Shown: positions 928-62,226, counted from the first letter of the stretch. The stretch: 64,000 bases of DNA from Kiritimatiellia bacterium (GCA_034178815.1 JAXFQS010000084.1:2112-66111); one strand, 5' to 3'. Numbers and translations: made by a program. Notes: generated by a model not told the origin, from the letters alone.

Positions 928-2178
928 ATGATAACTCAAGACACTCGAAAACTCTCGGAAGGGGACATCTATGTGGCGCTCCGGGGGGAACGGTTTGACG
1001 GACACGACTTCGTCTGCTCCGCCTTTGAAAAAGGGGCCTTGGAAGCGTGGGTCTGCGCCGATTGGATGCCACCAGAGGGGTGCTCAGGCAGGCTTCGAAG
1101 ATTCCCCGACACACGCTTGGCTTTGGGCGACGAAGCCCGCCGCTACCGCCAAACCCTTGCCGCCACCGTCATCGGCGTCACGGGTTCCGCCGGCAAAACG
1201 ACCACCAAGGAACTCCTTGCCGCGACATTCTCCCGTGCGCGACGGACGCGCGCCACCGAGGGAAATTACAACAACGATATCGGGCTGCCGCTGACCCTGC
1301 TCAACCTCCCCCGGAATGTCGAAGTCGCTATCGTCGAGGCGGGAACCAACCATCCCGGAGAAATCGCCAACCTAGCCGGAATCTTGCAACCTTCGGCGGC
1401 GGTGATTACCGGGATTGGACCGGCGCATATCGAATACTTCGGCTCGCTCGAAGCCATCGCCCGCGAGAAAGGTGCCCTCCTTGCCGCCCTTCCAAAAGAC
1501 GGACTTGCCGTGCTTCCTATGGAAGATCCGCACTTTGCCCTGCTCGCCGCGATGGCCCCCTGCCGCGTCATTTCGACCTCCGTTCACGACCGCGCCGCCG
1601 ACTACTGCTCGGACGCGCTGGACTTGCCGGGACTGGAACTTTCGGGGGACTACAACCGCTCCAATGTGGTTCTGGCCTATGCTATGGCGCGCGAGCAAGG
1701 GTTGACCAGACAGGAAGCCCTTGACGGCCTCCAGACCTTTCGTCCGCCGGCGATGCGCGGTGCCCTCCAAATCAAAGGCCCCTACCGAATCGTGGATGAC
1801 ACCTACAACGCCAACCCCTTGAGCATGACCTGCGCCGTGCAAGCCTTCGCCCTGCGCCAGGAGGCATCAAAAGTCCTCTGTCTCGGGGATATGCTCGAAC
1901 TCGGGGAGCACGCCCGCGACCTCCATCGGAAGGTCGGATTCGACGCCGCCGGAAGGGGTGACTGGCGCCTGCTGGTGCTCGTCGGGCAGGAGGCCAAAGC
2001 CATTGCGGAAGGGGCCATTGAAGCCGGCTATCCGTCCCTAAAGATACGCACCTTCGCGACCGCGGATGAGGCGGCAAGCCATCTAGGAGAATGGCTCCGG
2101 GAGGGCGATTGCCTGATGCTCAAAGCATCCCGGGGCATCCACTTGGAGCGAATCATCGAAGCGCTCCCAATAAAATAG
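928..2178 (+). CDS. murF: UDP-N-acetylmuramoyl-tripeptide--D-alanyl-D-alanine ligase (MurF), standalone (not in dcw cluster)
   Basis: Mur ligase motifs: GVTGSAGKTTTKE P-loop, DTYNANP, N-terminal DTRKLSEGDIYVALRGERFDGH; start taken at internal Met 928. Confidence 0.8.
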   Translation: MITQDTRKLSEGDIYVALRGERFDGHDFVCSAFEKGALEAWVCADWMPPEGCSGRLRRFPDTRLALGDEARRYRQTLAATVIGVTGSAGKTTTKELLAATFSRARRTRATEGNYNNDIGLPLTLLNLPRNVEVAIVEAGTNHPGEIANLAGILQPSAAVITGIGPAHIEYFGSLEAIAREKGALLAALPKDGLAVLPMEDPHFALLAAMAPCRVISTSVHDRAADYCSDALDLPGLELSGDYNRSNVVLAYAMAREQGLTRQEALDGLQTFRPPAMRGALQIKGPYRIVDDTYNANPLSMTCAVQAFALRQEASKVLCLGDMLELGEHARDLHRKVGFDAAGRGDWRLLVLVGQEAKAIAEGAIEAGYPSLKIRTFATADEAASHLGEWLREGDCLMLKASRGIHLERIIEALPIK

Positions 2179-2215
2179 CCGCCGGTTGCGTTAGGAAATT
2201 GAAGGAGTGTACCTT

Positions 2216-2740
2216 ATGAGAGCATTCGTTAGCATCATCGCCACCCTTTGCTTGCTATCTGCCGCCCACGCGCAAACCAACCAACCGAGGCCAGAGGTGC
2301 GTACCCGCAGCGCCCAGAGAACCCCGTCCTCCGGGCCGAACCAACGCCTCGTGCAATACCTCTGCCGCCCATCCGTCGCCCGCAAAGTCGGCGTTTCCCC
2401 AGAGACCGTCGCGCGCATCAAACAGCAACTCGAAGCAATAGCCGTCCAAGAACGCCCAATCCGCGAAGAACTCGACAAGAAGTTCCGCGCCAATGTCCGA
2501 CTCGCCAAGAAAATCCTCTCCTCCCGCGACGAAAAACCGGAGGCTTTGATAGCCGCCACCGAGGCCATCAGCGCCCTGCACGCCAAACTCGCCCTCTTGG
2601 ACATCCAGAAACTGCTGGTACTGCGTGACAACCTCACCCCTGAGCAGAGCGAGTGCCTCCTCAAATGCATCCGCGAAGAGCGGCGGATGCCTACCAAACG
2701 CCCCGCCAAAGGGATACCGCCCACCCATGACACCAAGTGA
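2216..2740 (+). CDS. secreted/periplasmic helical protein with LTPEQ motif (Spy/CpxP-like, tentative)
   Basis: N-terminal signal peptide (MRAFVSIIATLCLLSAAHA), LTxxQ-like motif, helical charged repeats; function inferred weakly. Confidence 0.4.
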   Translation: MRAFVSIIATLCLLSAAHAQTNQPRPEVRTRSAQRTPSSGPNQRLVQYLCRPSVARKVGVSPETVARIKQQLEAIAVQERPIREELDKKFRANVRLAKKILSSRDEKPEALIAATEAISALHAKLALLDIQKLLVLRDNLTPEQSECLLKCIREERRMPTKRPAKGIPPTHDTK

Positions 2741-3368
2741 CATTCCCGCCGTCCATCGGCTACTGCTCGCCCGCTTCAAAGTCACCCCATCGCCCATTAT
2801 CGAACTCATCGCGGCGCAAACTCAAGACCCATTCAAAGTCCTGATTGGCACCATCCTGTCGGCCCGGACGAAGGATGCCTGCACCGCCGGTGCTTGCCGC
2901 CGGCTGTTGCCGCTCATACACGAACCCGAAGATCTGGCTCGGCTACCAATCGAGGAGTTGGAGCGGTTGATTTTCCCCGTCGGGTTCTACCGTGCCAAGG
3001 CGCGGCATCTGCACGACCTGCCCGCTGTGCTCGGCGAGAAGTTCGGCGGGGTCTTGCCGCAGACGGTCGAAGAACTTTGCGAACTGCCGGGGGTGGGAAG
3101 GAAAACGGCGAACCTCGTGGTGGCGGTTGGATTTGACAAGCCTGCCGTCTGCGTCGATGTTCATGTGCATCGCATCAGCAACCGTCTCGGCCTGGTGCAC
3201 ACGAAGTCGCCTTTCGAGACCGAAATGGCTCTGCGGAAGGTCTTGCCGAAGCGCTATTGGAAGACTTGGAACTCCATCATCGTCTCCTTCGGGCAGACGC
3301 TCTGCGCGCCCCGCAATCCCCGCTGTTGCGACTGCCCCATTCGCCGCTATTGCCCCAGCGCAACCTAA
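2727..3368 (+). CDS. nth: endonuclease III (HhH-GPD DNA glycosylase with 4Fe-4S cluster loop)
   Basis: HhH motif LPGVGRKTANLV, catalytic region VDVHVHRI, C-terminal Cys cluster CAPRNPRCCDCPIRRYC; start at internal Met (14-nt overlap with upstream gene). Confidence 0.8.
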   Translation: MTPSDIPAVHRLLLARFKVTPSPIIELIAAQTQDPFKVLIGTILSARTKDACTAGACRRLLPLIHEPEDLARLPIEELERLIFPVGFYRAKARHLHDLPAVLGEKFGGVLPQTVEELCELPGVGRKTANLVVAVGFDKPAVCVDVHVHRISNRLGLVHTKSPFETEMALRKVLPKRYWKTWNSIIVSFGQTLCAPRNPRCCDCPIRRYCPSAT

Positions 3369-3635
3369 TCAGCGGCTGATTGTCCAAGCCCCCGTCCTGC
3401 GCCGCCGCCCGAACCGATTCCGTCAACGGTACGCGCCGCCTGAAGCCTTTTGCCTGCCCGCACGAGGGGATTGCCGCACGCTTGGAGCCCATGCGCCGAC
3501 GCTCGCAAGAGGTACCAACCTAGCGAACCGATTTCTAGTCGACAATGGCGTCCGGGTGTGGTAAACTTTGGGTCGTTTAGGTTGGCACCTTTCGCCACCT
3601 TTCCTACGCACCTTTTTGCCCGAGGATTTTCCGCC

Positions 3636-4730
3636 ATGCTGATACTCGACAACGCCTTTGTCTCCGACTTTCTGGCCGACTTCGCCGAGCAGTCCGGTCG
3701 CCCCGTGCTCGACACGCCCAGCACCCGCTCGCGCCTGTCAGGGCGCCGCATCAACTGGGCCTCCAAAGCCGATTCCGGCCCGCACTACTCCACCTCTGAG
3801 AACGCCATTCCCCTAGTTGCGCAGGGCTTTTTCGGCGAAGAAATCAAGCGTATGGTCGGCTTGATGAAGGACAAAGCCCGCTTCCGTGAAGCCATCGCCG
3901 GCTGCTACCCCACCTTCCGCTGCGTGCGCGTCCCACTCGACGCCTTGAACGCCTGGACGCCAGACTTCTATCCCTTCGTCCTCAAGCCCGCCGTCGGCTT
4001 CCTGAGCGAAGGCGTCTACAATGTCCGAACCCCCGAGGAACTCGCCCGCGTCAAACGCGACATCTTGGATAACGCCCAGCGCAGCGCATTCTCCAAGGCC
4101 GTTGTCGACAAAACACTCTTCATCGCCGAAACCTTCCTCGACGGCCCCGAACTCGCAGCAGACGCCTTCTATCTCGACAACGGAACGCCCGTCATCACCA
4201 ACATCTACCTCCATCCCTTCAACGGCGCAGACGATGTCAGCGACCGTTGCTACATCACCTCGCGCTCCCTCCTCGATCGCTACCTCGAACCCATCCGCCA
4301 GGCCTATGCCACCATTGGCAAAACCCTCGGACTCAGCCGCATTCCCGTCCATGCCGAGTTCCGCGACACCGCCAGCGGAATCGTTCCAATCGAGTTCAAC
4401 CCTTTGCGCTTCGCCGGCTGGTGCACGACCGACTTGACCTGGTTTGCCTACCATATCAACCAGTACCAGCACTACTTCGACCAGCGCCAGCCCCAATTCC
4501 CCGAAGACGACGGGTGCCTTCACTATTTCATGCTCGCCGAAAGGCCCGCAGGCGTCGAGGGGAAACAATGCGACTACGCCGCTCTGCGCCAAGCCGTCCC
4601 CGGACTCGTTGAAATGCGTCCCATCGATTACAACCACAATCCCCTCGCCGCCATCAACTTCGGATCGGTTCCGGGGATGGCGGAAATCGACACCATTCTC
4701 AAGCTCGACATGGCCCAATTCTTCCACTGA
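3636..4730 (+). CDS. ATP-grasp domain protein (putative carboxylate-amine/peptide ligase), first gene of envelope operon
   Basis: ATP-grasp signatures: KDKARFREAI, FVLKPAVG (ATP-binding Lys), ETFLDGPELAADAF, HAEF; start at Met 3636, upstream ORF extension is low-complexity. Confidence 0.6.
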   Translation: MLILDNAFVSDFLADFAEQSGRPVLDTPSTRSRLSGRRINWASKADSGPHYSTSENAIPLVAQGFFGEEIKRMVGLMKDKARFREAIAGCYPTFRCVRVPLDALNAWTPDFYPFVLKPAVGFLSEGVYNVRTPEELARVKRDILDNAQRSAFSKAVVDKTLFIAETFLDGPELAADAFYLDNGTPVITNIYLHPFNGADDVSDRCYITSRSLLDRYLEPIRQAYATIGKTLGLSRIPVHAEFRDTASGIVPIEFNPLRFAGWCTTDLTWFAYHINQYQHYFDQRQPQFPEDDGCLHYFMLAERPAGVEGKQCDYAALRQAVPGLVEMRPIDYNHNPLAAINFGSVPGMAEIDTILKLDMAQFFH

Positions 4731-4741
4731 AGAACCGCCCG

Positions 4742-5851
4742 GTGATTCGAATCCGACACATCCGGTCTTACCTTGCGCTCCTGCTCCTCGGCGGTTGCGG
4801 TCAGCCCGTTCCCAAGGCAGAATCCAGACCTCAGGAAACGCCGCCGCCAGAGCCGCCCCCGCTCATCGTCGAGGTTGTTCCCCCCGAACCCGAGCCCTTC
4901 CGTCTCTACGCCCCGACCAGGCAGCACTGCCTCGACGGCAGCCGCGTGACCAACATCTTTATGCACGCTGGGAATGGCAACCCGGAGAGCGGGCTTTTTG
5001 GTTTCCAGCGTGCGGCGGCGGACGGCAGACCCAGGCTCCACGAGGGCATCGACATTGCACCGTTGGCGCGTGACAAACGCCGCCGACCGCTCGATGAAGT
5101 CACCGCCGCCGCAACGGGGACTGTCGCCTATGTCAACCGCCGCGCCGGGGATTCGTCCTACGGCATCTACATCGTCATTCTCCACCAAGCCCCTCATCTC
5201 GGACCTGTCTATACCCTCTATGCACACCTTGCTAGCATTGCCCCCGACATCAAGCCAGGAAAAACTGTCGTTGCTGGCAACCTTTTGGGGCGAATCGGCA
5301 ACACCCCCGGGTTTCCGCTCTCCCGCGCGCACCTCCACTTCGAATGCGGGCTAATCAACAACAACCGCTTTGCCCGCTGGTACCACGACCGCTACCTCAA
5401 GCGCCATCCCCCGAAAAAGAACCGCCCCCGACCTGCCGACCACGGTATCTTCCACGGCTCCAACCTCACGGGACTCAACCCGAACGACCTCTTCCGCATC
5501 CGTGCCGAAGACGCCAGCGTCCCCTTGCTTCCCTACCTCCGAGAGTTGCCCATCGCATTCACACTCCTCTGCAAAACCAATCGCATCCCCGACTACTTCC
5601 GCCGCTACCCCGCCCTCTGGAGCGGGGAGCCCTTCCGCCCGGGAACCATCCGACTAAGCGTCTCGCAGGAAGGGATTGTCCTGCGCGGCACGAACGAACC
5701 CGAATCGAACGAAGCAACAGCCCTCCCCAAAATCCTCGCCGTCAACACCACCCTGCCTGGACTTCTCGGTCGCCGCTATGTACGCCCCGACGGCGCGCGG
5801 TGGAAACTCACACCCTCGGGAGAAGAGTGGCTCGACGCCTTCCTCTACTGA
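4742..5851 (+). CDS. M23 family metallopeptidase lipoprotein (LytM/lysostaphin-like)
   Basis: lipobox LLLGGC, Pro-rich linker, HEGIDIAP (HxxxD) and HLHFE (HxH) M23 motifs; 12-nt gap from ATP-grasp gene. Confidence 0.7.
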   Translation: MIRIRHIRSYLALLLLGGCGQPVPKAESRPQETPPPEPPPLIVEVVPPEPEPFRLYAPTRQHCLDGSRVTNIFMHAGNGNPESGLFGFQRAAADGRPRLHEGIDIAPLARDKRRRPLDEVTAAATGTVAYVNRRAGDSSYGIYIVILHQAPHLGPVYTLYAHLASIAPDIKPGKTVVAGNLLGRIGNTPGFPLSRAHLHFECGLINNNRFARWYHDRYLKRHPPKKNRPRPADHGIFHGSNLTGLNPNDLFRIRAEDASVPLLPYLRELPIAFTLLCKTNRIPDYFRRYPALWSGEPFRPGTIRLSVSQEGIVLRGTNEPESNEATALPKILAVNTTLPGLLGRRYVRPDGARWKLTPSGEEWLDAFLY

Positions 5852-5857
5852 CACAGC

Positions 5858-6865
5858 ATGGCCGGAATCCGCATCGAAAACCTCACCAAGACCTACCCCG
5901 GCGGCTCGAAAGCCGTCGACAAAATCTCCCTCTCCATTGCTGACGGCGAGTTCATCGTACTCGTTGGCCCCTCCGGCTGCGGCAAGTCGACAACCCTCCG
6001 CATGGTGGCCGGGCTCGAAACCATCACCTCCGGCACAATCCACATCGGAGAACGCCTAGTCAACGACCTCCCCCCAAAAGCGCGCGACATCGCGATGGTC
6101 TTCCAAAACTACGCGCTCTATCCCCACATGAGCGTGGAAGAAAACATGGCATTCGGACTCAAACTCCGCAAAGTCCCGAAAGAAGAGATTCGCCGCCGCG
6201 TCGCCGAAACCGCCGCAGCCCTCGGTCTAGAACCCTACCTCAAACGCCGCCCATCCCAACTCTCCGGCGGCCAGCGCCAACGCGTGGCAGTCGGCCGCGC
6301 CATCGTCCGCCAACCAGCCGCATTCCTCTTCGACGAACCCCTCTCGAATCTCGATGCCAAAATGCGCGTAGAAATGCGCGAAGAGATTCACCGCCTACAC
6401 CGCCGCCTGGGCGCAACCATGCTCTATGTCACCCATGACCAAACCGAGGCAATGACCCTGGCCGACCGCGTCGTCGTGATGAACTCAGGCGTCATTCTCC
6501 AGACCGGAGCACCGTTGGAAGTCTACAACCGACCGGCCAATCTCTTCACCGCAGCCTTCATTGGAACGCCCCCGATGAATCTCGTCCCCGAGGGCGACCG
6601 CATCCTTGGGTTCCGTCCCGAAGATGCCCTTTTGACCGCCGAAACAGGCTCATTCGCGCTCCCCGAGGGTGTCGTGGAACTGCTTGAACCAGTGGGCGCG
6701 GAAACCATCGCCCATGTGAACCTTCCAGGGTGTTCGAGCCGCATCCAAGTCCGCCTTTCTCCCGATGCACCCATCCGCGAAGGTCAGCACCTGTCGCTCC
6801 ACATCAAAGCCGGGCGCCGCCACCTGTTCGACGCAGCCACGGGACAAAGAGTTGCCGACCGCTAA
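5858..6865 (+). CDS. ABC transporter ATP-binding protein, MalK/UgpC/MsiK type with C-terminal TOBE-like domain (no permease adjacent)
   Basis: Walker [10 protein letters not shown], signature LSGGQRQR, Walker [13 protein letters not shown]-loop YVTHDQ. Confidence 0.85.
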
Positions 6866-6871
6866 CCACCC

Positions 6872-8464
6872 TTGAAGGCCACCATTATGCAGCTCCGCTT
6901 CCCGACCGACACGCGCTGGCGTCTACTCCCGCTGGCCCTGATCGTTATCGCCTATGCCTTCTGGCCGGCAATTTCTTTCACACTGTGGGTTTTCGGAGAT
7001 ACTTCCGAGGACATGGCCTACGGCTGGGTGATTCCCTTGATTGTCGGGGCCATCGTCTGGAAGCGCCGAGATGCGCTCCGTTGTGCGGCGGAGAGCCCCA
7101 GCCTAGTGGGTACGCTTTCGTGGCTGATTGGGCTTCTGTTCTTCTGGATTGGCAGCCGCGGGAACCAGCAACGCTTTCTGCAGTTGGCACTGGTGTGGAT
7201 GGTTTGGGCGATACCGTATGCTTTCTGGGGATGGAGGGTGGCGAAGCTGATGATTTACCCGGCGTGCTACTCGCTTTTGATTATTCCTCTAAGTTTTCTG
7301 GACGCCATCACCTTTCCGCTCCGTCTGGCGTCTTCTTGGGTATCCGTGGCTCTGCTCAATGGTTTCGGCATCGAGGCGAGACGGATAGGAACGGCGCTGA
7401 TTGGAGCGAACTTCCAACTGGATGTGGCGGATCCTTGTAGCGGGATTCGTTCGCTTGTCGTGCTGTTGGCATTGACTGCTGGCTATGCGGGGATTCACCG
7501 CCACTTCCGGTGGTGGACGAAAGCTCTGCTGGTGGCATCTGCATTGCCGCTGGCCTTTCTGGGAAATATCATCCGGTTGACGACGACGGCAGTGGCGTGT
7601 GCCTGTTTCGGGCAAGAAATCGGGATGTACTATCACGACCAGGCGGGGTATCTGACCTTCCCGTTGGTGATGCTGATTGTCCTTGTGTTGGTCGACTACT
7701 TCTCGAATCGGCAGCCGGCTCCGCCGCTTCAACGGGAGACTCCGATTCCTTCCGCGGGGTGGATTTCGCTACTGCCAATCGGCGCCATGATGGGCATCTT
7801 CGTGACTGGCTCCTGGCTTATCCAAAGGCAGCCGCCGCCCGACTATGAGCCCGATTCCTACATTGCCCAGGCGCTTCCGGATGTGCCTGGTTTCACCTCC
7901 TCGTTCGACTTGCATTGCCAGAATCCGGACTGTCTCTTGTCGACCTCCAGCGACAAGAAAGCGTGCCCTCTCTGCGGCGGGAAACTGGAGCGTGTGCCGC
8001 TTGCCGAACTGACGATTCTGCCGTCGGACACGCGTTTCCTGAAGCGCAACTACACGGGGGCGGACGGGGTTCCTCTTCGGGTCAGCGTTTTAGTCTCCGG
8101 GCGCTCGCGGATGAGCATCCACCGTCCGGAGATGTGCCTTCCCGGGCAGGGCTACACGATTTCGGACAGCTATGTGGTGGAGATACCTCTGGCCGACGGT
8201 TCAACGGTCAAGGCCAACTGTGTCACGGCCGCGAGGCTGGGCGAACCTCCGGTTGGACTGCTCTATTGGTTTGAGAATCCGCACGGTAGCGCCTACTCGC
8301 ACTATGAGCGAATTTTCTCGGATATTTGGGCGCGGACGGTGCACAACCGGATGATTCGATGGAGCGCGATTCTGATTATGCGCGAACGCCCCTACGATGA
8401 GGCGGCGCTGGAGCAGACGGCGCAGTTTCTGAGCCTGTGGCGGCCTCGGGTGGTGCGCCGCTGA
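6872..8464 (+). CDS. exosortase (8-TM transpeptidase) fused to C-terminal EpsI-family domain containing a Cys4 zinc-ribbon insert
   Basis: exosortase motif VADPCSGIRSL within polytopic membrane region; C-terminal EpsI signature SIHRPEMCLPGQGYT; insert CQNPDCLLSTSSDKKACPLCGG. Confidence 0.75.
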   Translation: MKATIMQLRFPTDTRWRLLPLALIVIAYAFWPAISFTLWVFGDTSEDMAYGWVIPLIVGAIVWKRRDALRCAAESPSLVGTLSWLIGLLFFWIGSRGNQQRFLQLALVWMVWAIPYAFWGWRVAKLMIYPACYSLLIIPLSFLDAITFPLRLASSWVSVALLNGFGIEARRIGTALIGANFQLDVADPCSGIRSLVVLLALTAGYAGIHRHFRWWTKALLVASALPLAFLGNIIRLTTTAVACACFGQEIGMYYHDQAGYLTFPLVMLIVLVLVDYFSNRQPAPPLQRETPIPSAGWISLLPIGAMMGIFVTGSWLIQRQPPPDYEPDSYIAQALPDVPGFTSSFDLHCQNPDCLLSTSSDKKACPLCGGKLERVPLAELTILPSDTRFLKRNYTGADGVPLRVSVLVSGRSRMSIHRPEMCLPGQGYTISDSYVVEIPLADGSTVKANCVTAARLGEPPVGLLYWFENPHGSAYSHYERIFSDIWARTVHNRMIRWSAILIMRERPYDEAALEQTAQFLSLWRPRVVRR

Positions 8465-9585
8465 TGAACCTTTTCTCGCATCTCTCCGAAGAGGAGGACA
8501 GGGAGTTCCTGTCGCGGCAGATTCTCACCTGCATCGGAAACAAGCGAGCACTTTTGGGGCCGATTGCCGATGCGATAGGGGTTGTGAGGAAGGCGCTCGG
8601 TGGGGGAAAAATGCGTTGCTTCGACCTCTTTTCAGGGAGCGGAATCGTCTCGCGCCTGTTCAAGCAATTCGCCTCGCTCGTGGTCGCCTGCGATCAGGAA
8701 CGCTACGCCTCGGTGGTCTCCAGGTGCTACCTTTCCAACCGCCGTGTACTGGCGGAAAAGGAGTTCGCCAACTGCTTCGAAGAGTGGAAGAACTGGGTCG
8801 AGAAGAACCTCGAACCGGGCTTTCTCACGCGCCTCTATGCGCCCGCGAACGATGCCGACATCCAGCCGGGCGAGCGGGCCTTCTACACCCGGGCGAATGC
8901 CGAAATCCTGGATACCGCCCGCCGCGCACTCGACCGCATCGTTCCCCCGCGCTATGCCGACTTGCTGCTGGGGCCGCTCCTTTCCGAAGCCTCGATCCAC
9001 GCCAACACTTCCGGCGTGTTCAAGGGCTTCTACAAGAATCGCAAAGGCACCGGAGCGTTCGGCGGCGAAGGTCGAAACGCGCTCACGCGCATCTGCGGAA
9101 AGGTCGTTCTGCAACACCCCGTCCTCTCCCGTTTCGACTGCGACAGCCTCGTCCTAGAAGGCGACGCCAACGCACTCGCCGCGACAGCCCCGGAGGTCGA
9201 TCTGGCCTATGTCGACCCGCCCTACAATCAACACCCCTACGGGTCGAACTACTTTATGCTGAACCTGTTGGCTGACTACCGGGAGCCGGATGCCGTCAGC
9301 CCGGTCAGCGGCATTCCGCGCAACTGGAACCGGTCGGTCTACAACAGCCGAAAGGAGGCCGCACCGGCCTTCTTCAGCCTGCTGGAAACCATCCGCGCCA
9401 AGTACCTGCTCGTCTCCTACAACTCCGAAGGATTCATTCCGCACGCCGAACTGGAAGCCTGCCTGGCGCGGCTCGGGCAAGTCACCTCGACCGCCATCTC
9501 CTACAACACCTTCCGGGGAAGCCGAAACCTCCGCGCGCGCGCACCGCGCGTCATCGAGTACCTCTTCCTCGTCAAGCGCGCCTGA
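8464..9585 (+). CDS. Dam-family (D12 class, alpha group) N6-adenine DNA methyltransferase, apparent orphan
   Basis: motif X-like IGNKRALLGPI, motif I DLFSGSG, motif IV DPPY (DLAYVDPPYNQHPYG); start ATG overlaps exosortase stop (TGATG); no restriction endonuclease gene nearby. Confidence 0.7.
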   Translation: MNLFSHLSEEEDREFLSRQILTCIGNKRALLGPIADAIGVVRKALGGGKMRCFDLFSGSGIVSRLFKQFASLVVACDQERYASVVSRCYLSNRRVLAEKEFANCFEEWKNWVEKNLEPGFLTRLYAPANDADIQPGERAFYTRANAEILDTARRALDRIVPPRYADLLLGPLLSEASIHANTSGVFKGFYKNRKGTGAFGGEGRNALTRICGKVVLQHPVLSRFDCDSLVLEGDANALAATAPEVDLAYVDPPYNQHPYGSNYFMLNLLADYREPDAVSPVSGIPRNWNRSVYNSRKEAAPAFFSLLETIRAKYLLVSYNSEGFIPHAELEACLARLGQVTSTAISYNTFRGSRNLRARAPRVIEYLFLVKRA

Positions 9586-9717
9586 CGGCGACTAGGCAGG
9601 AGTCGCCTGCGTTGATACCAACCTTTCGGGCGAAACGATAGCCACCACACATGCCCCAAGGTGCCTATCCGACCGTGTGAAAGGTTCCCACCTATCCCCC
9701 TCCCCTAAAACAGAAAC

Positions 9718-9742
9718 GGGAGGTTGCGATAGGCAACCTCCC
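9718..9742. repeat. hairpin GGGAGGTTGC-gata-GGCAACCTCCC in convergent intergenic region; motif family member / bidirectional terminator candidate
   Basis: 10-bp perfect stem. Confidence 0.5.
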
Positions 9743-9768
9743 TCAGAGGGACACAGCCTGTCGAACGG

Positions 9769-12700
9769 CTAGAAGTGGCGCGGCCCCAGCGCCGGGCCAA
9801 GCGAACGCTCCTGCTGAAGCAGTTTCAACGCCTCGGGGATACGCTGCCTCAGTTGCGACACCTGGCTCAACCGCTTCAGCGCCGTCTCGCCGCCAACCTT
9901 GAGCGCCTGAAGCAACGCCTGGTGCCCATACTGCACCTGCCCTACTTCGTAGTAGAGAATTGCCAAGTTCCCCCACATCATCCAGTCATTCGGACAGAGT
10001 TTCAGATAGCGGGAATAGATGCTCATCACGGGCTTGTACGCCTGCGCCTGAAGCGCCGCTTGGAGCAGCGTCTGCAATTGTTCAGGCGAGAGATTGGGAT
10101 ACTTCAACGCCCGATCGATAGCCGTTGCCGCCGCCTCCAAGCGGCGCATTGTCGCCAGCACACGGGCAATCGTGCAAAGATCGGCAGGCGCCAAATTGGG
10201 AATCTTGAGCAGTTGCTCGTAGGCCTGCCCCGCGTGAAGCCCATCGCCCAAGTCATAATAGGCGGAAGCCAGCGTGGCGAGTTCCTTCGGAGAAATGGTT
10301 CCATTGCCCATTTTCGGCGCCAACGCAGCAACAGTCTGGCGCGCCTTGAGCACCCCTTCGAGGTTCGCGCAAAGACCAAGCGAACGCGTATTCTTCGGAT
10401 CTCTGGCGTTGAACTCGCGCAGCACGCGAAGCGCTTCCTCCAGCCGGTTTTGGGGAATCAGCACCTCTTGAACCAGGCGGAAGTTGGCCTCCGGGCTGAC
10501 CGGGTAGAGCGCACGCCCCTGCTCGAAAGCAATCTCGCTCTCGCGCCTCATGCCGCGATTGGCATAGAGCCCCGCCAACGCGCAACGCAACTTCGAGAAA
10601 GATTTCTGCGCGACCAAATCGCGACGGAATTTGCGGTCACGGGTCAACCGCCGCAGGTACCAGTCCCAGAAATCCAAGTCGGCATTCGCCGTCCTTCTGT
10701 CCAGCGGAGTCTCCTTCGCGTTGATCTTCATAATCAGGCCGTGCGGCGAGAGGTAAGGATACATCCACGGAATGACATAACTCTCTTCGAGATAGAAGTC
10801 GTGGCGAGCGATATTCTTCTCCCACATCATACGGCAAAGGATGCCGTTGATTTCCATGACCCCGAGTGCTCCTGAGACTTGAACGCGGCCGTTTTCCACC
10901 CGCAAATCGGCGTTGGCGGCGCGCTTGCCCTGATTGACCTCTTCGACATAGATTTGGAACGCCTTTGCCGAATCATCCGCCGAAGGGATCCACATCTGAT
11001 TGCCGTAAAGATCGCGTTCGACCGACATATAGGTGCCATCGGCGAGGGCATTCTGCGTGATGAGAAAGACATCCGGCCGCACATTCGCCGCATAGATCAT
11101 ATAGGTCGGCACGAAACGCCCTGGATCGGTTCCGCCGAAGAAGACGGCATTCGTGGTCATTGCCGGAGGATAGAGCGGATTGGGCAGAGGTTCTTCGTCG
11201 GGGGCGAGTTCTTCACGAATCGCGTCCGCCCCGCGCAACTGGTAATTGCCGAACTGCCAACCATAGTCGTGCCCATTCTGCTCGGCGGCACTGGCCTTGA
11301 AAACCAGATGGTCGTTCATAAAGTTCTCCCATACCGGCACGAGCGGCACCATCAGGGCAAGCACCGTAGCCCCAAGGCACGCCGGACGGAAGCAACTCGG
11401 CAGGTACTTGGCGCACACCTCCGCGCCAACGAAGAGCGCCAGAATCAACCCGTAGCCAATCCAGAGGGAATAGAGACCGTGGGAGGAGATGAACTTCACC
11501 TTCTGGATGAAGTAGTCCTGCAAATCGCCCGTGGGGTTGGCCAAAGCGATGAGCATGACCGACATCACCAGAAAGGCCAACATCGTGCCGATGAGCCATT
11601 GGCGGCTAAGCGGCGAAAACTCCTGGTGAAGCACGCAGTCGGCATCCGTCTTGCTGCCAGATGGGAGGAAGTTCCAAGCAAGCAAAAGCGCGCCGAATGT
11701 CAATCCAAATCCGAGGAAGATTGAGACAACACTGATGAGAACGGGCAAATGAGTGTGCCATATTGGAGTGTGCCACATTGTCGGCAGGACAGCCAACAAG
11801 ATACGCGAAACCAACGCCCCGATTCCCAGCACGATTCCGACAATCGCCAAGCCGCGCGTGATACCCTCGGCGGTCATTCTGTCACGCCAGGAATCGCGGG
11901 CTATCGAGACCACTTGCGACAGCCCAATGGTCACGAATCCAACGGCGCTGAGCAACACCATCCCGCCCATCAGATACTTGTCGATACGCCAAAGCGGCTC
12001 GGTCTGGAAGAGTTCTGCTATGAAAACCACCAGGGCGCAGAACAGGAAGAGCACAACGGCGGGCAGCAGCATCCGGATTCGGCGATTGCGCCAGATGAAG
12101 TTCCAGGCGGAGAATGGCAGAATCGCCAACGGCGCGACCAGCAGGGTGAATTGGACGCGCACATCGGTGAAGTAGTCGCCCAGTTGCTGGAGAAAGCGTT
12201 CAGTGAAGATGCTCTGGGCCGAAATCTGCTCGTACTGCCCGCGCGTAATGGCGTGCTTGAAGCCTTCCCAAGTCCGCGGATAGCCCCAGTTCATCGGGGG
12301 ATTGCGCAGGTCGGAGACGATTGGCATGTAGGCGTAGAAACTCACGCCCAATTCGCAGAAGAAGATGGTCGCGGCGACCGTTCTTCCGTTGGGCAGACAA
12401 ATCAAAGCCAGCCCGAGCAGGAGGAAGTTCCACAACACCGGCCACCAGAACCACCAGGTGCTGGGGTGGGACAGTCCTAGGAGCGCACCTTTGCGCAACA
12501 GCAGGTAGACCGTCAACTGCACAAACGCCACCGCCACCGCGAAGAAGGTGGCGCCTCGGGTCAGCGCGGATGTGACCGTCAGATAGACTAGTAGCGCCAC
12601 GACCACAACACCGACCGAGAGCCAATCCTGTATAGGACCGCGGAACCCTGTCGGTATGGATTGGGTAGGGAGCATTCCTATGACCACCAGCAAAACCAAC

Positions 12701-13905
12701 GCAACTACGCCAAGGGCGACAACAATGGGAACCAGGTCGGAGAAGCGTCTGCCCTGGTTGGAGAGCAATCCGCCGATGGCCGACAACCCGATTGCGACCA
12801 GAACGAGGAGTCCAATCCAGCAATAGGTCGCCGGCGCAATCAAAGGTGCCCAGTCGAGATGGGCGTCCACGACCGGAGCCGTGGTCGAGAACCTAGCGGC
12901 AAGGGCGACAAGCACCGCGCCGACGATTAGAGGAGCCGCGAGGAGCAACATCTGCCAGTCAAGCGGCCTCTTGGCAAAAGTATTGAGGCGCGAATCCGGG
13001 CGCGAAACGGCAACCTTGGTCAGAAGCGTCAACGGCACGACAAGGCAGAGGCAGGCAACGCCCGAAACCAGCAGCCCGGCGTGCGGATAGGCGAAACGCG
13101 CCCCTGGTTCAACGAGTGGACGCAGGATGCAAGGGGTCGAACTGGTGGCTCCGGGGAATGCCGTAGGCAGGGCGCCGAGCTGCAACATCCAGGCCGTCAG
13201 AAGGATGGGAATCGCCACCAGAACAAAGTCCCGGAAAAGGCTGGCGTTGCGCATGAAGATGATGAAGGCGAGCGGCACCGCCGCCAGCAGGAGCACCTGG
13301 TAGTTGGTCAGTCCGAGACCAAAAACAAAGGCCAACAGCCAGAGCGTTTTGTCGCGCGGGGCTTTCATCCACTGGTAGGTCAAGAGAAACACCCACATCA
13401 GGAAAAGCGCACCAAGAGAGTAGACCTCGACAATCGTCGACTGAGACCACATCACCGGAGAGAAGGCAAAGGCCAGTGCGCCGCCAACTCCGCCGGCCCA
13501 ACTGAACAGCGTGTCAAAAGCGGAAGACTTCTCCTCCTCCCGTCCGTTCCCACCGCGCAAATCGCTGAGCATGTCAGAGCCGGATCGCGTGATGAGCATC
13601 GCCGTGATGCCAGCCGCCAAAGCGCCCGCAACCGCCGAAGCCAGCGACACGGCGTAGGCCGGCGTAGGCTGGCCTCGGAAAGTAACCCAGTCGAACAGAC
13701 GGCAGAAACCCCAACAGATCATCGTCCAGATGGGATAGCCGGGCGGATGGGGAACGCCGAGTGCGTTGGCGGCGGTAGCCAACTCGCCCGAATCTTCCAA
13801 CCCGACAGAGGGCCCCAAGGTGAAGAAGTAGACGAGGAACGCCACGAGTGTGCCGGTCCAGAACGAAGCCCAATCGACGCGGCGGAAGAAGGAAGTGTTT
13901 TGCAT
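9769..13905 (-). CDS. giant polytopic membrane protein: N-terminal DUF2723 (GT-C/TMEM260-like glycosyltransferase fold) plus many TM helices and C-terminal TPR repeats
   Basis: N-terminus FFTLGPSVGLEDSGELATAANALGVPHPPGYPIW typical of DUF2723; long hydrophobic core; C-terminal TPR-like helical repeats; 21-nt downstream of topA (same strand). Confidence 0.5.
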   Translation of the reverse strand: MQNTSFFRRVDWASFWTGTLVAFLVYFFTLGPSVGLEDSGELATAANALGVPHPPGYPIWTMICWGFCRLFDWVTFRGQPTPAYAVSLASAVAGALAAGITAMLITRSGSDMLSDLRGGNGREEEKSSAFDTLFSWAGGVGGALAFAFSPVMWSQSTIVEVYSLGALFLMWVFLLTYQWMKAPRDKTLWLLAFVFGLGLTNYQVLLLAAVPLAFIIFMRNASLFRDFVLVAIPILLTAWMLQLGALPTAFPGATSSTPCILRPLVEPGARFAYPHAGLLVSGVACLCLVVPLTLLTKVAVSRPDSRLNTFAKRPLDWQMLLLAAPLIVGAVLVALAARFSTTAPVVDAHLDWAPLIAPATYCWIGLLVLVAIGLSAIGGLLSNQGRRFSDLVPIVVALGVVALVLLVVIGMLPTQSIPTGFRGPIQDWLSVGVVVVALLVYLTVTSALTRGATFFAVAVAFVQLTVYLLLRKGALLGLSHPSTWWFWWPVLWNFLLLGLALICLPNGRTVAATIFFCELGVSFYAYMPIVSDLRNPPMNWGYPRTWEGFKHAITRGQYEQISAQSIFTERFLQQLGDYFTDVRVQFTLLVAPLAILPFSAWNFIWRNRRIRMLLPAVVLFLFCALVVFIAELFQTEPLWRIDKYLMGGMVLLSAVGFVTIGLSQVVSIARDSWRDRMTAEGITRGLAIVGIVLGIGALVSRILLAVLPTMWHTPIWHTHLPVLISVVSIFLGFGLTFGALLLAWNFLPSGSKTDADCVLHQEFSPLSRQWLIGTMLAFLVMSVMLIALANPTGDLQDYFIQKVKFISSHGLYSLWIGYGLILALFVGAEVCAKYLPSCFRPACLGATVLALMVPLVPVWENFMNDHLVFKASAAEQNGHDYGWQFGNYQLRGADAIREELAPDEEPLPNPLYPPAMTTNAVFFGGTDPGRFVPTYMIYAANVRPDVFLITQNALADGTYMSVERDLYGNQMWIPSADDSAKAFQIYVEEVNQGKRAANADLRVENGRVQVSGALGVMEINGILCRMMWEKNIARHDFYLEESYVIPWMYPYLSPHGLIMKINAKETPLDRRTANADLDFWDWYLRRLTRDRKFRRDLVAQKSFSKLRCALAGLYANRGMRRESEIAFEQGRALYPVSPEANFRLVQEVLIPQNRLEEALRVLREFNARDPKNTRSLGLCANLEGVLKARQTVAALAPKMGNGTISPKELATLASAYYDLGDGLHAGQAYEQLLKIPNLAPADLCTIARVLATMRRLEAAATAIDRALKYPNLSPEQLQTLLQAALQAQAYKPVMSIYSRYLKLCPNDWMMWGNLAILYYEVGQVQYGHQALLQALKVGGETALKRLSQVSQLRQRIPEALKLLQQERSLGPALGPRHF

Positions 13906-20633: not shown

Positions 20634-21257
20634 TCACCCGCCGAAAGCCTGCTCCAGCGCGGCAAGCGTCAAACCGCCGGCGTTCTTTCCTAGCAACCTC
20701 TCGACATACTTCCCGAGTATGTCCGACTCCAGGTTCAACCTATCTCCGGCCCCCAAAGATGCCAATGTCGTGGCGCGCAAGGTTTCCGGGATCAGGTTCA
20801 CCTCGAACCAGTCGTCGCCCAACCCGCTGACCGTCAAACTCACCCCGTCCAACGCCGCCGATCCCTTCAAGACCGTCCGCCTTGCAAACGCCCGGCTGCA
20901 ACCAATCCGCAACACGCGGTCGCACCCGCGCGGCGTGACGGCGAGCACCGTTCCGATCTCGTCAATGTGTCCGGTCACCAAGTGCCCACCCAGCCGTTCC
21001 CCAAAAGCAAGCGCCCTTTCAAGGTTGACCGGGCCAACCGCGAGAGCCGTTTTCGAGAGGGTTTCCTCCAAGACATCGGCAGCAAACCAGTCGTTTCCGT
21101 GGCTCGTCACGGTCAGGCAGGTGCCCATCACCGCGACGCTTTCCCCATCGGCCAGCGGATCCGGCCAAGGCTTGAATCCAATCGTCAGGCGCCTACCCGT
21201 GCCCCTCGGGGCAAGCGTCCGGATAACGCCGATTTGCTGAACCAATCCGGTGAACAT
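20634..21257 (-). CDS. ribE: riboflavin synthase alpha subunit
   Basis: MFTGLVQQIG N-terminus, duplicated lumazine-binding half-domains (GTCLTV / GVSLTV). Confidence 0.85.
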   Translation of the reverse strand: MFTGLVQQIGVIRTLAPRGTGRRLTIGFKPWPDPLADGESVAVMGTCLTVTSHGNDWFAADVLEETLSKTALAVGPVNLERALAFGERLGGHLVTGHIDEIGTVLAVTPRGCDRVLRIGCSRAFARRTVLKGSAALDGVSLTVSGLGDDWFEVNLIPETLRATTLASLGAGDRLNLESDILGKYVERLLGKNAGGLTLAALEQAFGG

Positions 21258-21260
21258 AGG

Positions 21261-23195
21261 TTACAGTCCTTGTTTCAAACGCTGCTTGATTTTGACCCCT
21301 TCGACGGCTTGCCCGCAGAGGATGCAAATGTCGGCATAAACCCGCGAGAGTTCGTCAGACTTCCACCCGTTCCTGTCACAGACCCCGCGGGCGAGGCGGA
21401 TGGCTTCCTGGGGCATTCGCCCCTCCCAGTCGGCCGCCAAGATACGCGCCTGGGCCAGTTCGGATTGGTCGCGGAGTCCCTCGACGGAGGGGAATCTTTC
21501 AGGCAGTTTCCGCCACAGGTCGAGGGCTAGTCGATAGGCCTGGGCATCCTCGGCGGCATAGGCGGCGGCGAGGTGGTATTCAAGGCAGGAAGGGGCTTTC
21601 GAGGCGGCCGTGCGGAAGTGTTCGAGGGCGGCAGGGAAGTCGGTCTTTGCTCGCAAGGAGAAGGCGTAGTTGAAGTGGGCGGCGGCGGTGTCGTGCCCCA
21701 TATCGAGAATCGCGGCGCGGGCCTTGGCAGCGCCGGGAATGTCGCCCAGTTTCTGCCGTCGCTGAGCCTCCAGTTCGAGGCGGTCGACGAGTTCGAGAAT
21801 GAGCGGATCCTGGGGATTTGCCTGTCTGGGGAAGGTTTTGCCGTCGCCCAGACGGGTGGCGATGGCGAGTTGGCGTCCTTTGCCAGATGCGGCGAGGGCA
21901 CGCGTCAGGAGGGAGTTGTAGACCTGCTCGTTCAGTCCCGCGCCGGGTTGGAGCCAGTCGAGGCGATTGGTGGCAATCTCCGGGAGAGATTGGAGGATAC
22001 GGGCGCCCTGCTCTCGTGCGAACAAGAGGCGTATGGTGCTGGCAACCTTTTGGTTGCGGTGGTGGGTTACATAGGCATCGAGTCCCGAGGTTCCGGCGAC
22101 ATAGGCGGCGAAGAGGTTGGGCAGGGAGGTCAAGCCGGCCGCGGCAAGGGCTCGCATCAAGGCGGGCTCGGCATAGCGCAGAAGCATATTGCCTAGGGGA
22201 AGGTCGAACGGGGCGTTGGAAAGAAGCAGGAGGTAGTCGTTGATGCTGGTCTGCCAAAGTTGGGCGTGAGCGTAGCGCTTGCGCCAGAAGGCGAGTTCTT
22301 GAGCGAGGGCGGGTGGGTCGAGCGGTCGGACATCGAGTATAATCGCGAGGAGGCCGTCGGGGGCGAGATTTCGTGGCGTTGGATGGCGCGATGTGGGCCA
22401 TTTCCAGGCGGGAGGCTGGCGGTAGAGGATGATATCGTAGCCGTTGGTGCGCGGCTGGGACGCGAGCAGGGAATGGAATAGACTTCGGTGGATTTCTGGA
22501 CAATCGCCCATCACGATTCCACTTTGGGCGCGGGGGCGGACGAGCAGAGGCAGGGCGGTCTGGAGGGTGGTTGCGGCAAGGAATCGTTGTTCCATCGCCA
22601 ACGGGCGGCCATCGGGCGCGAAGCTGATGCGCCCATAGCCTTCAACGGGGCTGGCGGTCGGCTTGGCGGCGTAGCCGGAGTCGCGATTCGCCAGCAACCC
22701 AAATGCGCCAGCCGCGCCGGATAGATCTAGGCTCCGAACGGTGAACAAGGTGGCCAGTCCGGTCAGCAGCAGAAGGGTTGCCCTCCAGAGGCGCCATTGG
22801 CTGATGCCGCGGGCAAGAGCATACCAGACTGCCCCCCACAATCCAATTGTCAGAAAGAAGGTTCGCACCAATGCTTGGGCGTAAAGCAAGGAGGAACGCT
22901 CTGGAGCGACTACGAGTTGAGCCCAGCCGTGCTGTAGCCACTTGAGAAGGAACGGCTGCGCCGCCCAGGCGGCAATCAGACACACCGCCCCCGCCCAACT
23001 GCGGAAAGGTTTGAAACGGGCGATGCCCCACCCCAGAAGCAAGGTTAGCCCCACGCCCAAAAGGACTACGCGCCAACTCCAGAGGGTGCTTCCGCCAAAG
23101 GCAATCAAGGCGGATATTTCCAGCACGGCAAGCAATACGCCTTCAAGGAGAAATAGCGCGGCAAGGAAGGATTGGAGGCGGGGCTTGGGCATCAA
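21261..23195 (-). CDS. polytopic membrane protein with spermidine-synthase-like domain and C-terminal TPR repeats (paralog of 58570..60669)
   Basis: N-terminal multi-TM region; mid-region YDIILYRQP / APDGLLAIIL resembling aminopropyltransferase fold; C-terminal TPR-like helices. Confidence 0.4.
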   Translation of the reverse strand: MMPKPRLQSFLAALFLLEGVLLAVLEISALIAFGGSTLWSWRVVLLGVGLTLLLGWGIARFKPFRSWAGAVCLIAAWAAQPFLLKWLQHGWAQLVVAPERSSLLYAQALVRTFFLTIGLWGAVWYALARGISQWRLWRATLLLLTGLATLFTVRSLDLSGAAGAFGLLANRDSGYAAKPTASPVEGYGRISFAPDGRPLAMEQRFLAATTLQTALPLLVRPRAQSGIVMGDCPEIHRSLFHSLLASQPRTNGYDIILYRQPPAWKWPTSRHPTPRNLAPDGLLAIILDVRPLDPPALAQELAFWRKRYAHAQLWQTSINDYLLLLSNAPFDLPLGNMLLRYAEPALMRALAAAGLTSLPNLFAAYVAGTSGLDAYVTHHRNQKVASTIRLLFAREQGARILQSLPEIATNRLDWLQPGAGLNEQVYNSLLTRALAASGKGRQLAIATRLGDGKTFPRQANPQDPLILELVDRLELEAQRRQKLGDIPGAAKARAAILDMGHDTAAAHFNYAFSLRAKTDFPAALEHFRTAASKAPSCLEYHLAAAYAAEDAQAYRLALDLWRKLPERFPSVEGLRDQSELAQARILAADWEGRMPQEAIRLARGVCDRNGWKSDELSRVYADICILCGQAVEGVKIKQRLKQGL

Positions 23196-23202
23196 TCGGC
23201 TC

Positions 23203-24153
23203 CTAGACGGGGAATCTCAGCAGCGCGTAGGTGTAACCCACATAGACCAGTAGCAGCACACCACCTTCCTTCCGGTTGACCCGACCCTGGCGTCCGCGGA
23301 AACCCGCGCTCATCGCCCAAAGAAAGATAGTCGTCAATGCCATAGTCGGCACATCGCGCCAGAAAATCGCGGGAATCACCCGAATCGGCTTGAGCACGCC
23401 CGCAATGCCAATTACACAGAGCAGATTGAAGAGATTCGACCCCAACACATTCCCCAGAGCAATGTCGTGCTGTCCCTTCCAGGCTGCCGCCACCGAAGAG
23501 GCCAGTTCGGGAAGAGATGTCCCCAAAGCCACAATCGTCAGGCCAATAACCAAGTCGCTCAACCCAAGCGCCTTTGCCAAGGCAATCGCCCCCCAGACCA
23601 GCAGTTTCGAACTCAACACCAACCCGCCCAAACCAGCCACGACATAGACCGAACCACGCACAAGCGAAAGTTCCTTTACCACCGGTTCCTCCGCCCCCCC
23701 CAACGCGTCCCTACGCACTGAAATCCAGATCAGACACCCAAAAGCCGCCAGCATCACTACGGCATTCCACCGCGAAATCCAGCCATTCGCCGCCAGACAT
23801 CCAAACAAAACCATCGTCCCCAGCAAAACCGGAATCTCGTAGGTCACCACACTCCGCTTCGCCAGGATTGGATTGATTAGCGCCGTCACCCCCAGAATCA
23901 AACAGACATTTGTAATGTTCGAGCCAATCGCATTCCCCAGCGCCAACTCTGGGGCGTCGCCCAAAGCCGCCGTCGCCGAGACAATCATCTCAGGAAGCGA
24001 AGTCCCGAATCCCACCACCAACATCCCAATCAGCATCTGCGACATCCCCAAACGCCGCGCAATCGCCGCCGCACCGTCGACAAACCGATCTGCACTCCAC
24101 ACCAGCACCCCCAACCCGACGACAAGCGCCCCCGCAATCCGAAAAACTTCCAT
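23203..24153 (-). CDS. Ca2+/cation antiporter (CaCA family, YrbG-like)
   Basis: two alpha-repeats GNAIGSNITNV and GNVLGSNLFNL, 10-TM pattern. Confidence 0.8.
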   Translation of the reverse strand: MEVFRIAGALVVGLGVLVWSADRFVDGAAAIARRLGMSQMLIGMLVVGFGTSLPEMIVSATAALGDAPELALGNAIGSNITNVCLILGVTALINPILAKRSVVTYEIPVLLGTMVLFGCLAANGWISRWNAVVMLAAFGCLIWISVRRDALGGAEEPVVKELSLVRGSVYVVAGLGGLVLSSKLLVWGAIALAKALGLSDLVIGLTIVALGTSLPELASSVAAAWKGQHDIALGNVLGSNLFNLLCVIGIAGVLKPIRVIPAIFWRDVPTMALTTIFLWAMSAGFRGRQGRVNRKEGGVLLLVYVGYTYALLRFPV

Positions 24154-24165
24154 CGCCCACAGTCC

Positions 24166-24789
24166 TTAAATAGACACCCACTCCGCCGCCGAATCCACGC
24201 AAAGCGTCGGCTGATAGTCCCCCATCCGGCCAAAACCAAAACGGCAGAAACAACTCCTGACGCCCGCAGCCGAAGCCGCCGCCAAATCCGTCCAATTATC
24301 CCCAACGAGCCAATCCTCCGCCGACACCTCAACCCCTAAAGCCCGCGCCGCATAGGCAATCGGAAGGCCACTCGGCTTCAACTCCGGGCAATCCCCGCCC
24401 CCCACCACGACCCCGAAATAGGAACCAATCCCCAGCCCCTCCACAATTGCGCGGCTGAACCGCCCAGGCTTGTTCGTCACCACCCCCAACTTCTCCCCCC
24501 GATTGGCCAATACCCGCAAAGCCTCGGCAACCCCGGAATACAACCTCGTCTGGCAAAGCAAACGCTCCCCATAGTGCCGCTCTTGGATTGCCAGAGCCTC
24601 GTCAATACCCTTTCCCTCAAGTTCTGGAATCGCATCCACCACCAGCCGACGCATCCCATTTCCCACCTTAGCCACAACCGCCTCGCGCGCCACTTCAGGC
24701 AAACCAAGCTCCCGCCGCGTCGCATTCACCGCATCTGCCAAGTCTCCGCGCGAGTCAATCAGCGTACCATCCATATCAAACAAAAACAT
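24166..24789 (-). CDS. HAD-superfamily hydrolase (phosphoglycolate phosphatase-like)
   Basis: motif I FLFDMDGTL, motif II VVTNK, motif III/IV GDNWTDL; start at internal Met (upstream ORF extension Arg-rich junk). Confidence 0.7.
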   Translation of the reverse strand: MFLFDMDGTLIDSRGDLADAVNATRRELGLPEVAREAVVAKVGNGMRRLVVDAIPELEGKGIDEALAIQERHYGERLLCQTRLYSGVAEALRVLANRGEKLGVVTNKPGRFSRAIVEGLGIGSYFGVVVGGGDCPELKPSGLPIAYAARALGVEVSAEDWLVGDNWTDLAAASAAGVRSCFCRFGFGRMGDYQPTLCVDSAAEWVSI

Positions 24790-24886
24790 AGCAAAACCCC
24801 TCCTCGATACGCGTTCCCGGAAAAACAAACGGCATCCGAATCGCCAAGAATCGGACGCCGCAAGAAACAGCCACTCAGGCAATGGC

Positions 24887-34007: not shown

Positions 34008-34011
34008 GGAT

Positions 34012-40865: not shown

Positions 40866-40875
40866 CGGGGGCGGA

Positions 40876-62208: not shown

Positions 62209-62226
62209 TGGAAAAGGAAATCGGCC

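Follow-up and report, generated by a model that had tools for sequence, protein, structure and literature searches.

Five genes packed almost end to end on the plus strand of a 64,000-nt stretch of DNA from an uncultured Kiritimatiellia bacterium (GCA_034178815.1 JAXFQS010000084.1:2112-66111; the whole stretch is called the window here) raise the question of whether genes that lie together also work together. They span window positions 3636–9585 and encode, in this order, an ATP-grasp ligase, an M23 lipoprotein peptidase, an ATP-binding cassette (ABC) ATPase, an exosortase fused to an EpsI domain, and an N6-adenine DNA methyltransferase (methylase). The original prediction, made from the sequence alone, took them as a possible module for remodelling the envelope, co-regulated with an epigenetic methylase. 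The identities of the five genes held throughout, each product scoring above its profile thresholds, but the module did not, given that synteny decays in relatives and that the methylase is separately explained as the remnant of a restriction–modification (R-M) system. The five genes quite probably represent a compact and most likely co-transcribed string that built up within this lineage as genes of independent function accreted, with the R-M remnant at its end. All five belong to established families; what is new is only further members of these families and an exosortase clade without a named subtype.

Gene order, spacing and transcription

Conservation of the gene order in related genomes had been proposed as a check on the module. 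The complete order is kept only within the genus, in the sister genome (L008, contig JBJFGP010000024), where all five genes are collinear with 89% nucleotide identity over 15 kb, and it decays stepwise from there. In L001, the closest relative outside the genus, whose exosortase is 73% identical in amino acid sequence, the M23 gene (at the contig end), the ABC gene and the exosortase gene are followed by a methylase pseudogene, after which synteny breaks into phosphotransferase system genes. Only the ABC–exosortase pair remains in L006 and L007 (exosortase 46% identical), and in L005 and L009 (50%) the order is DUF493–exosortase–Dtd. Of the 87 exosortase loci, the remaining 80, inspected up to 8–10 kb on each side, have none of the four partner genes, apart from generic ABC matches of low identity (25–46%) that lie several kilobases away in a few of them. 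The expectation of a conserved gene order is thus largely refuted. All five genes are under purifying selection in the comparison with L008, the ratio of nonsynonymous to synonymous substitution rates (dN/dS) being 0.07–0.17 (exosortase 0.07, ABC ATPase 0.085, ATP-grasp 0.10, methylase 0.17), and none of them has a paralogue within the 64-kb window.

The five same-strand genes lie where they had been predicted (Table 1), whereas their spacing had been given correctly only in part. Gaps of 12, 7, 7 and −1 nt had been stated; when the junctions were re-read, 11 nt were counted between the ATP-grasp stop codon (4728–4730) and the GTG start of the M23 gene (4742), 6 nt between the M23 stop codon (5849–5851) and the ABC ATG (5858), and 6 or 21 nt between the ABC stop codon (6863–6865) and the exosortase start, depending on whether the TTG at 6872 or the ATG at 6887 is used. 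The ATG is the likelier start because the homologues P0001 and P0002 have matching N-termini. The last junction was exact, the exosortase TGA (8462–8464) and the methylase ATG (8464–8466) overlapping by 1 nt as TGATG.

The claim of one likely transcript is supported by gaps of no more than 21 nt, by a promoter-like site in the 267-nt gap after nth, and by the lack of an internal plus-strand terminator, the terminator scan having called no plus-strand intrinsic terminator in 2000–10500. Judging from these sequence features, the five genes are probably co-transcribed. A short hairpin directly 3′ of the methylase stop codon might act as a weak transcript end, and the cluster is bounded downstream by the hairpin of the convergent gene on the minus strand. 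A riboswitch or leader RNA 5′ of the first gene was considered and rejected, as there was no Rfam match and the leader did not fold better than shuffled sequences (z +1.1).

Tight spacing is not peculiar to this locus. At 20634–24966, a RibE-like riboflavin synthase, an unknown membrane protein, an Na/Ca exchanger and an HAD hydrolase are separated by 3, 7 and 12 nt, and at 33255–35591 the gaps between RecO, a PfkB kinase and a type II dehydroquinase are 4 and −4 nt. Tight gaps joining unrelated genes are the norm in this window, so the spacing of the five genes is not exceptional. The result is mainly a caution: compact genomes join unrelated genes by gaps of a few nucleotides, and spacing alone should not be taken to imply a functional module.

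Table 1. The five genes and the candidate transcription signals around them (window coordinates)
Feature	Position	Strand	Evidence
ATP-grasp enzyme, 364 amino acids, no signal peptide	3636..4730	+	PF13535, 158 bits, 1.6e-46
M23 (LytM-type) zinc metallopeptidase lipoprotein, 369 amino acids	4742..5851	+	PF01551, 52.3 bits (cut-off 28.7), 6.8e-14
UgpC/MalK/MsiK-type ABC importer ATPase with C-terminal TOBE_2 regulatory domain	5858..6865	+	PF00005 and PF08402
Exosortase (EpsH core of eight transmembrane segments) fused to EpsI domain, with four-cysteine zinc-ribbon insert	6887..8464 (alternative TTG 6872)	+	PF09721 2.3e-43; PF11984 1.2e-11
Solitary alpha-class (D12) N6-adenine DNA methyltransferase, 373 amino acids	8464..9585	+	PF02086, 51 bits versus 22
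Sigma-70-like promoter candidate (TCGACA-17-TAAACT with TG)	3539..3567	+	Consensus match only; 69 nt 5′ of first gene
7-bp hairpin GGCGACT-AGGCAGG-AGTCGCC, without T-tract	9587..9607	+	Read from sequence; not called by terminator scan
Intrinsic-terminator-like hairpin, 10 pairs, of the convergent TMEM260-like/TPR gene	9718..9742	-	Terminator scan

Restriction–modification ancestry of the methylase

The methylase belongs to a very large family with at least 8000 candidates, the best 120 of which are 52–63% identical to it, several of them named Kiritimatiellae. Motif I DxFxGxG (D54/F56/G58/G60) and the motif IV DPPY (251–254) are invariant in 18 sequences. The earlier label of a Dam-family enzyme is right in the broad sense of the D12 class, but no NCBIfam model was matched and there was no PDB sequence match at E ≤ 1, solved Dam structures included.

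In several relatives, an EcoRI-fold nuclease gene (PF02963) lies 0–20 nt 3′ of the methylase gene. It is immediately downstream in L093–97, was present in two of the first three contexts examined, and was found in 11 of the 54 metagenome loci that extend far enough 3′ of the methylase gene. When all neighbours, upstream and downstream, were clustered, a single large group emerged, that of the nuclease, with 12 of the 64 downstream neighbours; no other cluster had more than three members, and most neighbours were singletons. The nuclease matches R.EcoRI at 1e-12 over its catalytic part, and the same modification–restriction (M–R) pair is carried by the 6-kb Paracoccus marcusii plasmid pCP157_17 (NZ_CP065909.1), where the neighbour is annotated as ‘EcoRI family type II restriction endonuclease’. 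A tblastn search at E ≤ 10 returned only noise, and neither an EcoRI-like nuclease nor a remnant of one was found anywhere in the window. Because the relatives carry an adjacent nuclease and the window has none, the window methylase is what remains of a type II R-M cassette, now solitary. Selection still constrains it, but the L001 lineage could dispense with it, the gene there being a pseudogene with at least 8 in-frame stops, one frameshift and DPPY changed to EPAY. We propose that a mobile cassette inserted at the 3′ end of the operon would have brought the methylase in as its M half, that the EcoRI-fold partner would then have been lost, and that the methylase has presumably persisted alone. 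The locus offers a clean case of an R-M cassette that inserts at the end of an operon and then decays: some relatives retain both genes, the window keeps the methylase alone, and a third lineage has a pseudogene.

As expected of a mobile cassette, one of the intact pairs (L093, 5898–11493; also in L094 and L095) interrupts an ABC importer operon, which lies 3′ of rpoBC on a human-gut metagenome contig; the pair separates the ATPase gene from the two permease genes, and its junctions overlap by 4 nt. The ATPase there was considered as an orthologue of the one in the window and rejected: it is only 48% identical over the nucleotide-binding domain (NBD) and belongs to its own permease operon, and it was not taken as evidence of a conserved link between ABC ATPase and methylase.

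The four upstream products and their possible connections

For the ATP-grasp enzyme, a RimK-, cyanophycin synthetase- or MurD-like subfamily had been raised as a question. Such a placement was not supported, since no NCBIfam or Pfam model of MurD, Ddl, RimK or cyanophycin synthetase was matched and none of these proteins was among the top 50 folds. Among PDB sequences, only that of the L-amino-acid ligase BL00235 (3VOT; 1.8e-8) matches clearly. An AlphaFold2 model with a predicted local distance difference test (pLDDT) score of 91.5 gave RizA (4WD3), BL00235 (3VOT) and BacD/YwfE (3VMM) as the top folds (TM 0.65–0.70, E 1e-17 to 1e-15), followed by PurK, PurD and biotin carboxylases. All 33 sequences compared share the nucleotide- and Mg-binding residues K117, E165, E241, E253 and N255. 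From the modelled fold, the protein is predicted to be an L-amino-acid-ligase-like carboxylate–amine ligase, which would act in the cytoplasm and would probably join amino acids. The family is spread over Planctomycetes, Bacteroidia, Bacillaceae and a methanogen. Three homologues at a greater distance (35–48% identity) stand alone, beside GH3, GH20/GNAT or other genes and with no M23 neighbour.

The M23 product was correctly called a lipoprotein, its lipobox lying in MIRIRHIRSYLALLLLGGC and its zinc ligands HxxxD and HxH being invariant. Conservation of H100/D104, H162 and H197/H199 in all 31 homologues makes the set of zinc and catalytic residues complete. Foldseek searches with the AlphaFold2 model (pLDDT 88.5) matched DipM, Csd3 and ShyA at E values of about 1e-7, over the LytM domain only. 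The C-terminal domain of about 130 amino acids is conserved across the full-length family and had no fold match in the PDB. That family comprises 110 clusters at E ≤ 1e-30, with members named M23 metallopeptidase, in Kiritimatiellae and Verrucomicrobia, or MepM/NlpD. The window enzyme may cut peptidoglycan cross-links during growth or division.

The ABC ATPase scored 478 bits against the UgpC model NF008653 (cut-off 432). Its translation contains FLFDEP, and Walker A, LSGGQ, Walker B and a TOBE-type domain are all present. Its description as an orphan proved accurate, as the window holds no permease or binding-protein gene. ATPases of the UgpC/MalK type are often encoded apart from their permeases. 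By analogy, the lack of an adjacent permease is consistent with a shared MsiK-like sugar-importer ATPase, and the UgpC/MalK/MsiK-type protein would energise sugar importers with permeases encoded elsewhere.

The exosortase domain covers profile positions 2–251 of the 254 in PF09721 (148.9 bits versus 25.7), and of the catalytic residues, C189 (DPCSG) and R235 (GNxxR) are invariant in 16 sequences, in which H255 is at least 90% conserved. The generic TIGR02602 was the sole NCBIfam exosortase model to pass its cut-off (115 versus 105.55). None of the named subtypes in NCBIfam, XrtA to XrtZ, did so: XrtD scored 129.5 versus 400, XrtA 125.1 versus 208 and XrtW 102.5 versus 425. The EpsI domain passes PF11984 (45.1 versus 26.1), falls below the cut-off of TIGR02914 (19 versus 42.8) and carries an invariant HRPEMCLPGQG motif. 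At its start lies a zinc-ribbon-like insert with four cysteines, CQNxxC...CPxCG (window 7916–7978; residues 349–369 numbered from the TTG at 6872), which is not covered by the Pfam EpsI match. Its cysteines C349, C354, C365 and C368 are invariant among 16 homologues from Kiritimatiellia and Lentisphaerae. Proteins carrying both the exosortase and EpsI domains number well over 100 (584 matches at E ≤ 1e-10).

The statement that no PEP-CTERM substrate is encoded in the window was borne out, strict and relaxed scans for the C-terminal motif giving one spurious open reading frame (ORF). PEP-CTERM tails do occur near exosortase homologues in L058, L059, L061 and L062, those of the Kiritimatiellota loci L058 and L059 being canonical, and the window fusion protein is predicted to cleave and sort PEP-CTERM proteins encoded elsewhere in the genome. 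Glycan-biosynthesis markers, the classical context of exosortases, are present at 39 of the 87 homologue loci; none was found beside the exosortase gene in the window, L001 or L005–L009, an exopolysaccharide (EPS) neighbourhood being the typical context of exosortases and not a strict requirement. Two tandem exosortase::EpsI fusion genes, whose products are 33–35% and 43–44% identical to the window protein, were observed in L002 (6316–9734), L003 and L013. The tandem pair belongs to a polysaccharide-biosynthesis locus, in which the next gene encodes a conserved protein of about 500–514 amino acids without a Pfam domain.

A single envelope module would have to bring together peptide ligation, peptidoglycan cleavage, ATP-driven export, PEP-CTERM sorting and an epigenetic methylase. 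Such a combination could draw on the tight packing with its translationally coupled last junction, on three of the five products acting on or in the envelope, and on the order kept in L008 and partly in L001. However, it is hardly credible in view of the exosortase having no partner nearby in 80 more distant loci, of ATP-grasp homologues that stand alone, of an ABC ATPase that is an importer-type NBD with TOBE_2 and not an exporter, of a methylase derived from an R-M system and dispensable in L001, and of unrelated genes packed equally tightly elsewhere in the window. A narrower connection would pair only the first two products and leave the other three unrelated, the ligase building or repairing a peptide (e.g., a peptidoglycan stem or bridge) that the M23 enzyme then cleaves. 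The two genes are adjacent, with the same 11-nt gap in the window and L008, MurF is encoded just upstream, and an L-amino-acid-ligase fold next to an enzyme class that cuts peptide cross-links would fit. Nevertheless, we regard this pairing as quite unlikely, given that the two proteins would act in different compartments, the ligase, which lacks a signal peptide, in the cytoplasm and the M23 lipoprotein in the periplasm, that the three more distant ATP-grasp contexts have no M23 gene, that M23 homologues occur only in L001 and L008 among the 178 loci examined, and that the ligase family includes a methanogen, which has no murein.

Another possibility is that the solitary methylase now serves as a domesticated epigenetic regulator, and that translational coupling to the exosortase gene would link the level of DNA methylation to envelope gene expression. 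In keeping with this, it has been under purifying selection after the loss of the nuclease, its start codon overlaps the exosortase stop codon, 43 of the 54 metagenome loci of the family are without the nuclease, and the copy in L091, 5 kb away from an exosortase gene, is likewise solitary. A solitary methylase can be under purifying selection without being a regulator, though, and the gene is a pseudogene in L001 while the upstream genes are intact, and apart from the nuclease the neighbours of the family are essentially random; domestication is therefore unlikely. We prefer the accretion of independent genes plus an R-M remnant, and infer both the substrates named above and the absence of a shared function despite co-expression. 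Several points weigh against this preference. The ABC–exosortase adjacency extends down to 46% exosortase identity on two independent contigs, with junctions of 4 and 9 nt, farther than one might expect from chance compaction alone; because the adjacency persists so far, a coupling of the two genes is a weak possibility. The L001 contig is cut at the M23 gene and so cannot show whether an ATP-grasp gene is present. A link between ATP-grasp and M23 genes elsewhere is likewise a weak possibility, the M23 contexts covering close relatives only, and MurF, 1.5 kb upstream, could be read as part of a peptidoglycan theme. That the methylase is a domesticated regulator whose dosage follows envelope expression, or that the importer-type ATPase is truly coupled to protein sorting by the exosortase, has in our estimate a slim chance of being correct.

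Some further observations concern the window as a whole. ACGT occurs once in the 64,000 bases (at 49519), against about 134 occurrences expected under a maximal-order Markov model (ACG 953, CGT 926), and the seven most depleted of the 256 tetranucleotides are all palindromes (observed/expected: ACGT 0.007, AGCT 0.21, GATC 0.39, AATT 0.50, CATG 0.50, CTAG 0.56 and GGCC 0.57); CTCGAG is also depleted (5 observed, 28 expected). The avoidance is shared by L008 (ACGT 4 versus 35 expected) and not by L001, and it is absent from most of roughly 100 other loci of at least 8 kb, a few of which are depleted in a single site of their own, such as L089 (ACGT 0 versus 10.5) and L134 (AGCT 1 versus 22). Palindrome avoidance in the window and L008 therefore implies an unusually strong, lineage-specific restriction pressure. 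Site avoidance gave no clear reading of the methylase target: AATT is depleted in the window, as given above, but intact M–R loci show no consistent AATT depletion.

Downstream of the five genes, on the minus strand, 9769–13905 encodes a 1378-amino-acid membrane protein with an N-terminal TMEM260-like (DUF2723) protein O-mannosyltransferase domain and C-terminal TPR repeats, followed by topA. At 36172–41138 (minus strand), large overlapping ORFs with ketosynthase, acyltransferase, PS-DH dehydratase and 4′-phosphopantetheinyl transferase domains look like a polyunsaturated fatty acid synthase or polyketide synthase locus. A 1510-amino-acid secreted protein encoded at 42946–47478 (minus strand) combines an M60-like (enhancin/mucinase) peptidase domain with FGE-sulfatase-like and GDSL lipase/esterase domains, and its neighbours, a second FGE-like protein and a rhamnosidase, suggest a glycoprotein-degradation locus. 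Bacterial RNase P class A RNA was recognized at 61863–62212 (minus strand; 211.8 bits, full-length model); a 320-amino-acid ORF at 62161–63123 (plus strand), without a Pfam match, overlaps its end and may be spurious.

Comparison with known systems

The ATP-grasp enzyme resembles the L-amino-acid ligases RizA (4WD3), BL00235 (3VOT) and BacD/YwfE (3VMM), which are its best fold matches, but it is only 13–16% identical to them and shorter (364 amino acids against 390–470), and it belongs to a separate, widespread family, all of whose members are uncharacterised and which shows no association with biosynthetic clusters. The M23 protein shares the LytM fold and the full set of zinc and catalytic residues with the endopeptidases Csd3, ShyA and DipM, and differs from them by its lipoprotein anchor and its family-specific C-terminal domain. 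Shared ‘multitask’ sugar-importer ATPases have been described as MsiK in Streptomyces (PMC4890002) and MsmK in Anaerocellum bescii (PMC12096829). The window ATPase has the same UgpC/MalK-type NBD with a C-terminal regulatory domain and is likewise encoded away from any permease; by this analogy, it may serve one or several transporters. The plasmid enzyme of pCP157_17, which is paired with an EcoRI-family nuclease, shares 45% identity with the window methylase, and Kiritimatiellia methylases with the nuclease downstream share 55–60%. In contrast to these M–R pairs, the window methylase has no nuclease gene or remnant and is translationally coupled to the exosortase gene.

The fusion of an exosortase with EpsI was already described in the PEP-CTERM/exosortase system of EpsH (TIGR02602) and EpsI (TIGR02914/PF11984) (Haft et al., 2006; PMC1569441). 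The window protein shares with that system the core of eight transmembrane segments, the catalytic residues and the C-terminal EpsI fusion. It differs in its conserved four-cysteine ribbon and in fitting no named subtype, and in the window lineage its gene sits among housekeeping genes, not EPS genes. Together with its relatives in Kiritimatiellota and Lentisphaerota, it forms a large clade of exosortase::EpsI proteins with the zinc-ribbon insert that lies outside the named Xrt subtypes and could be given a model of its own.

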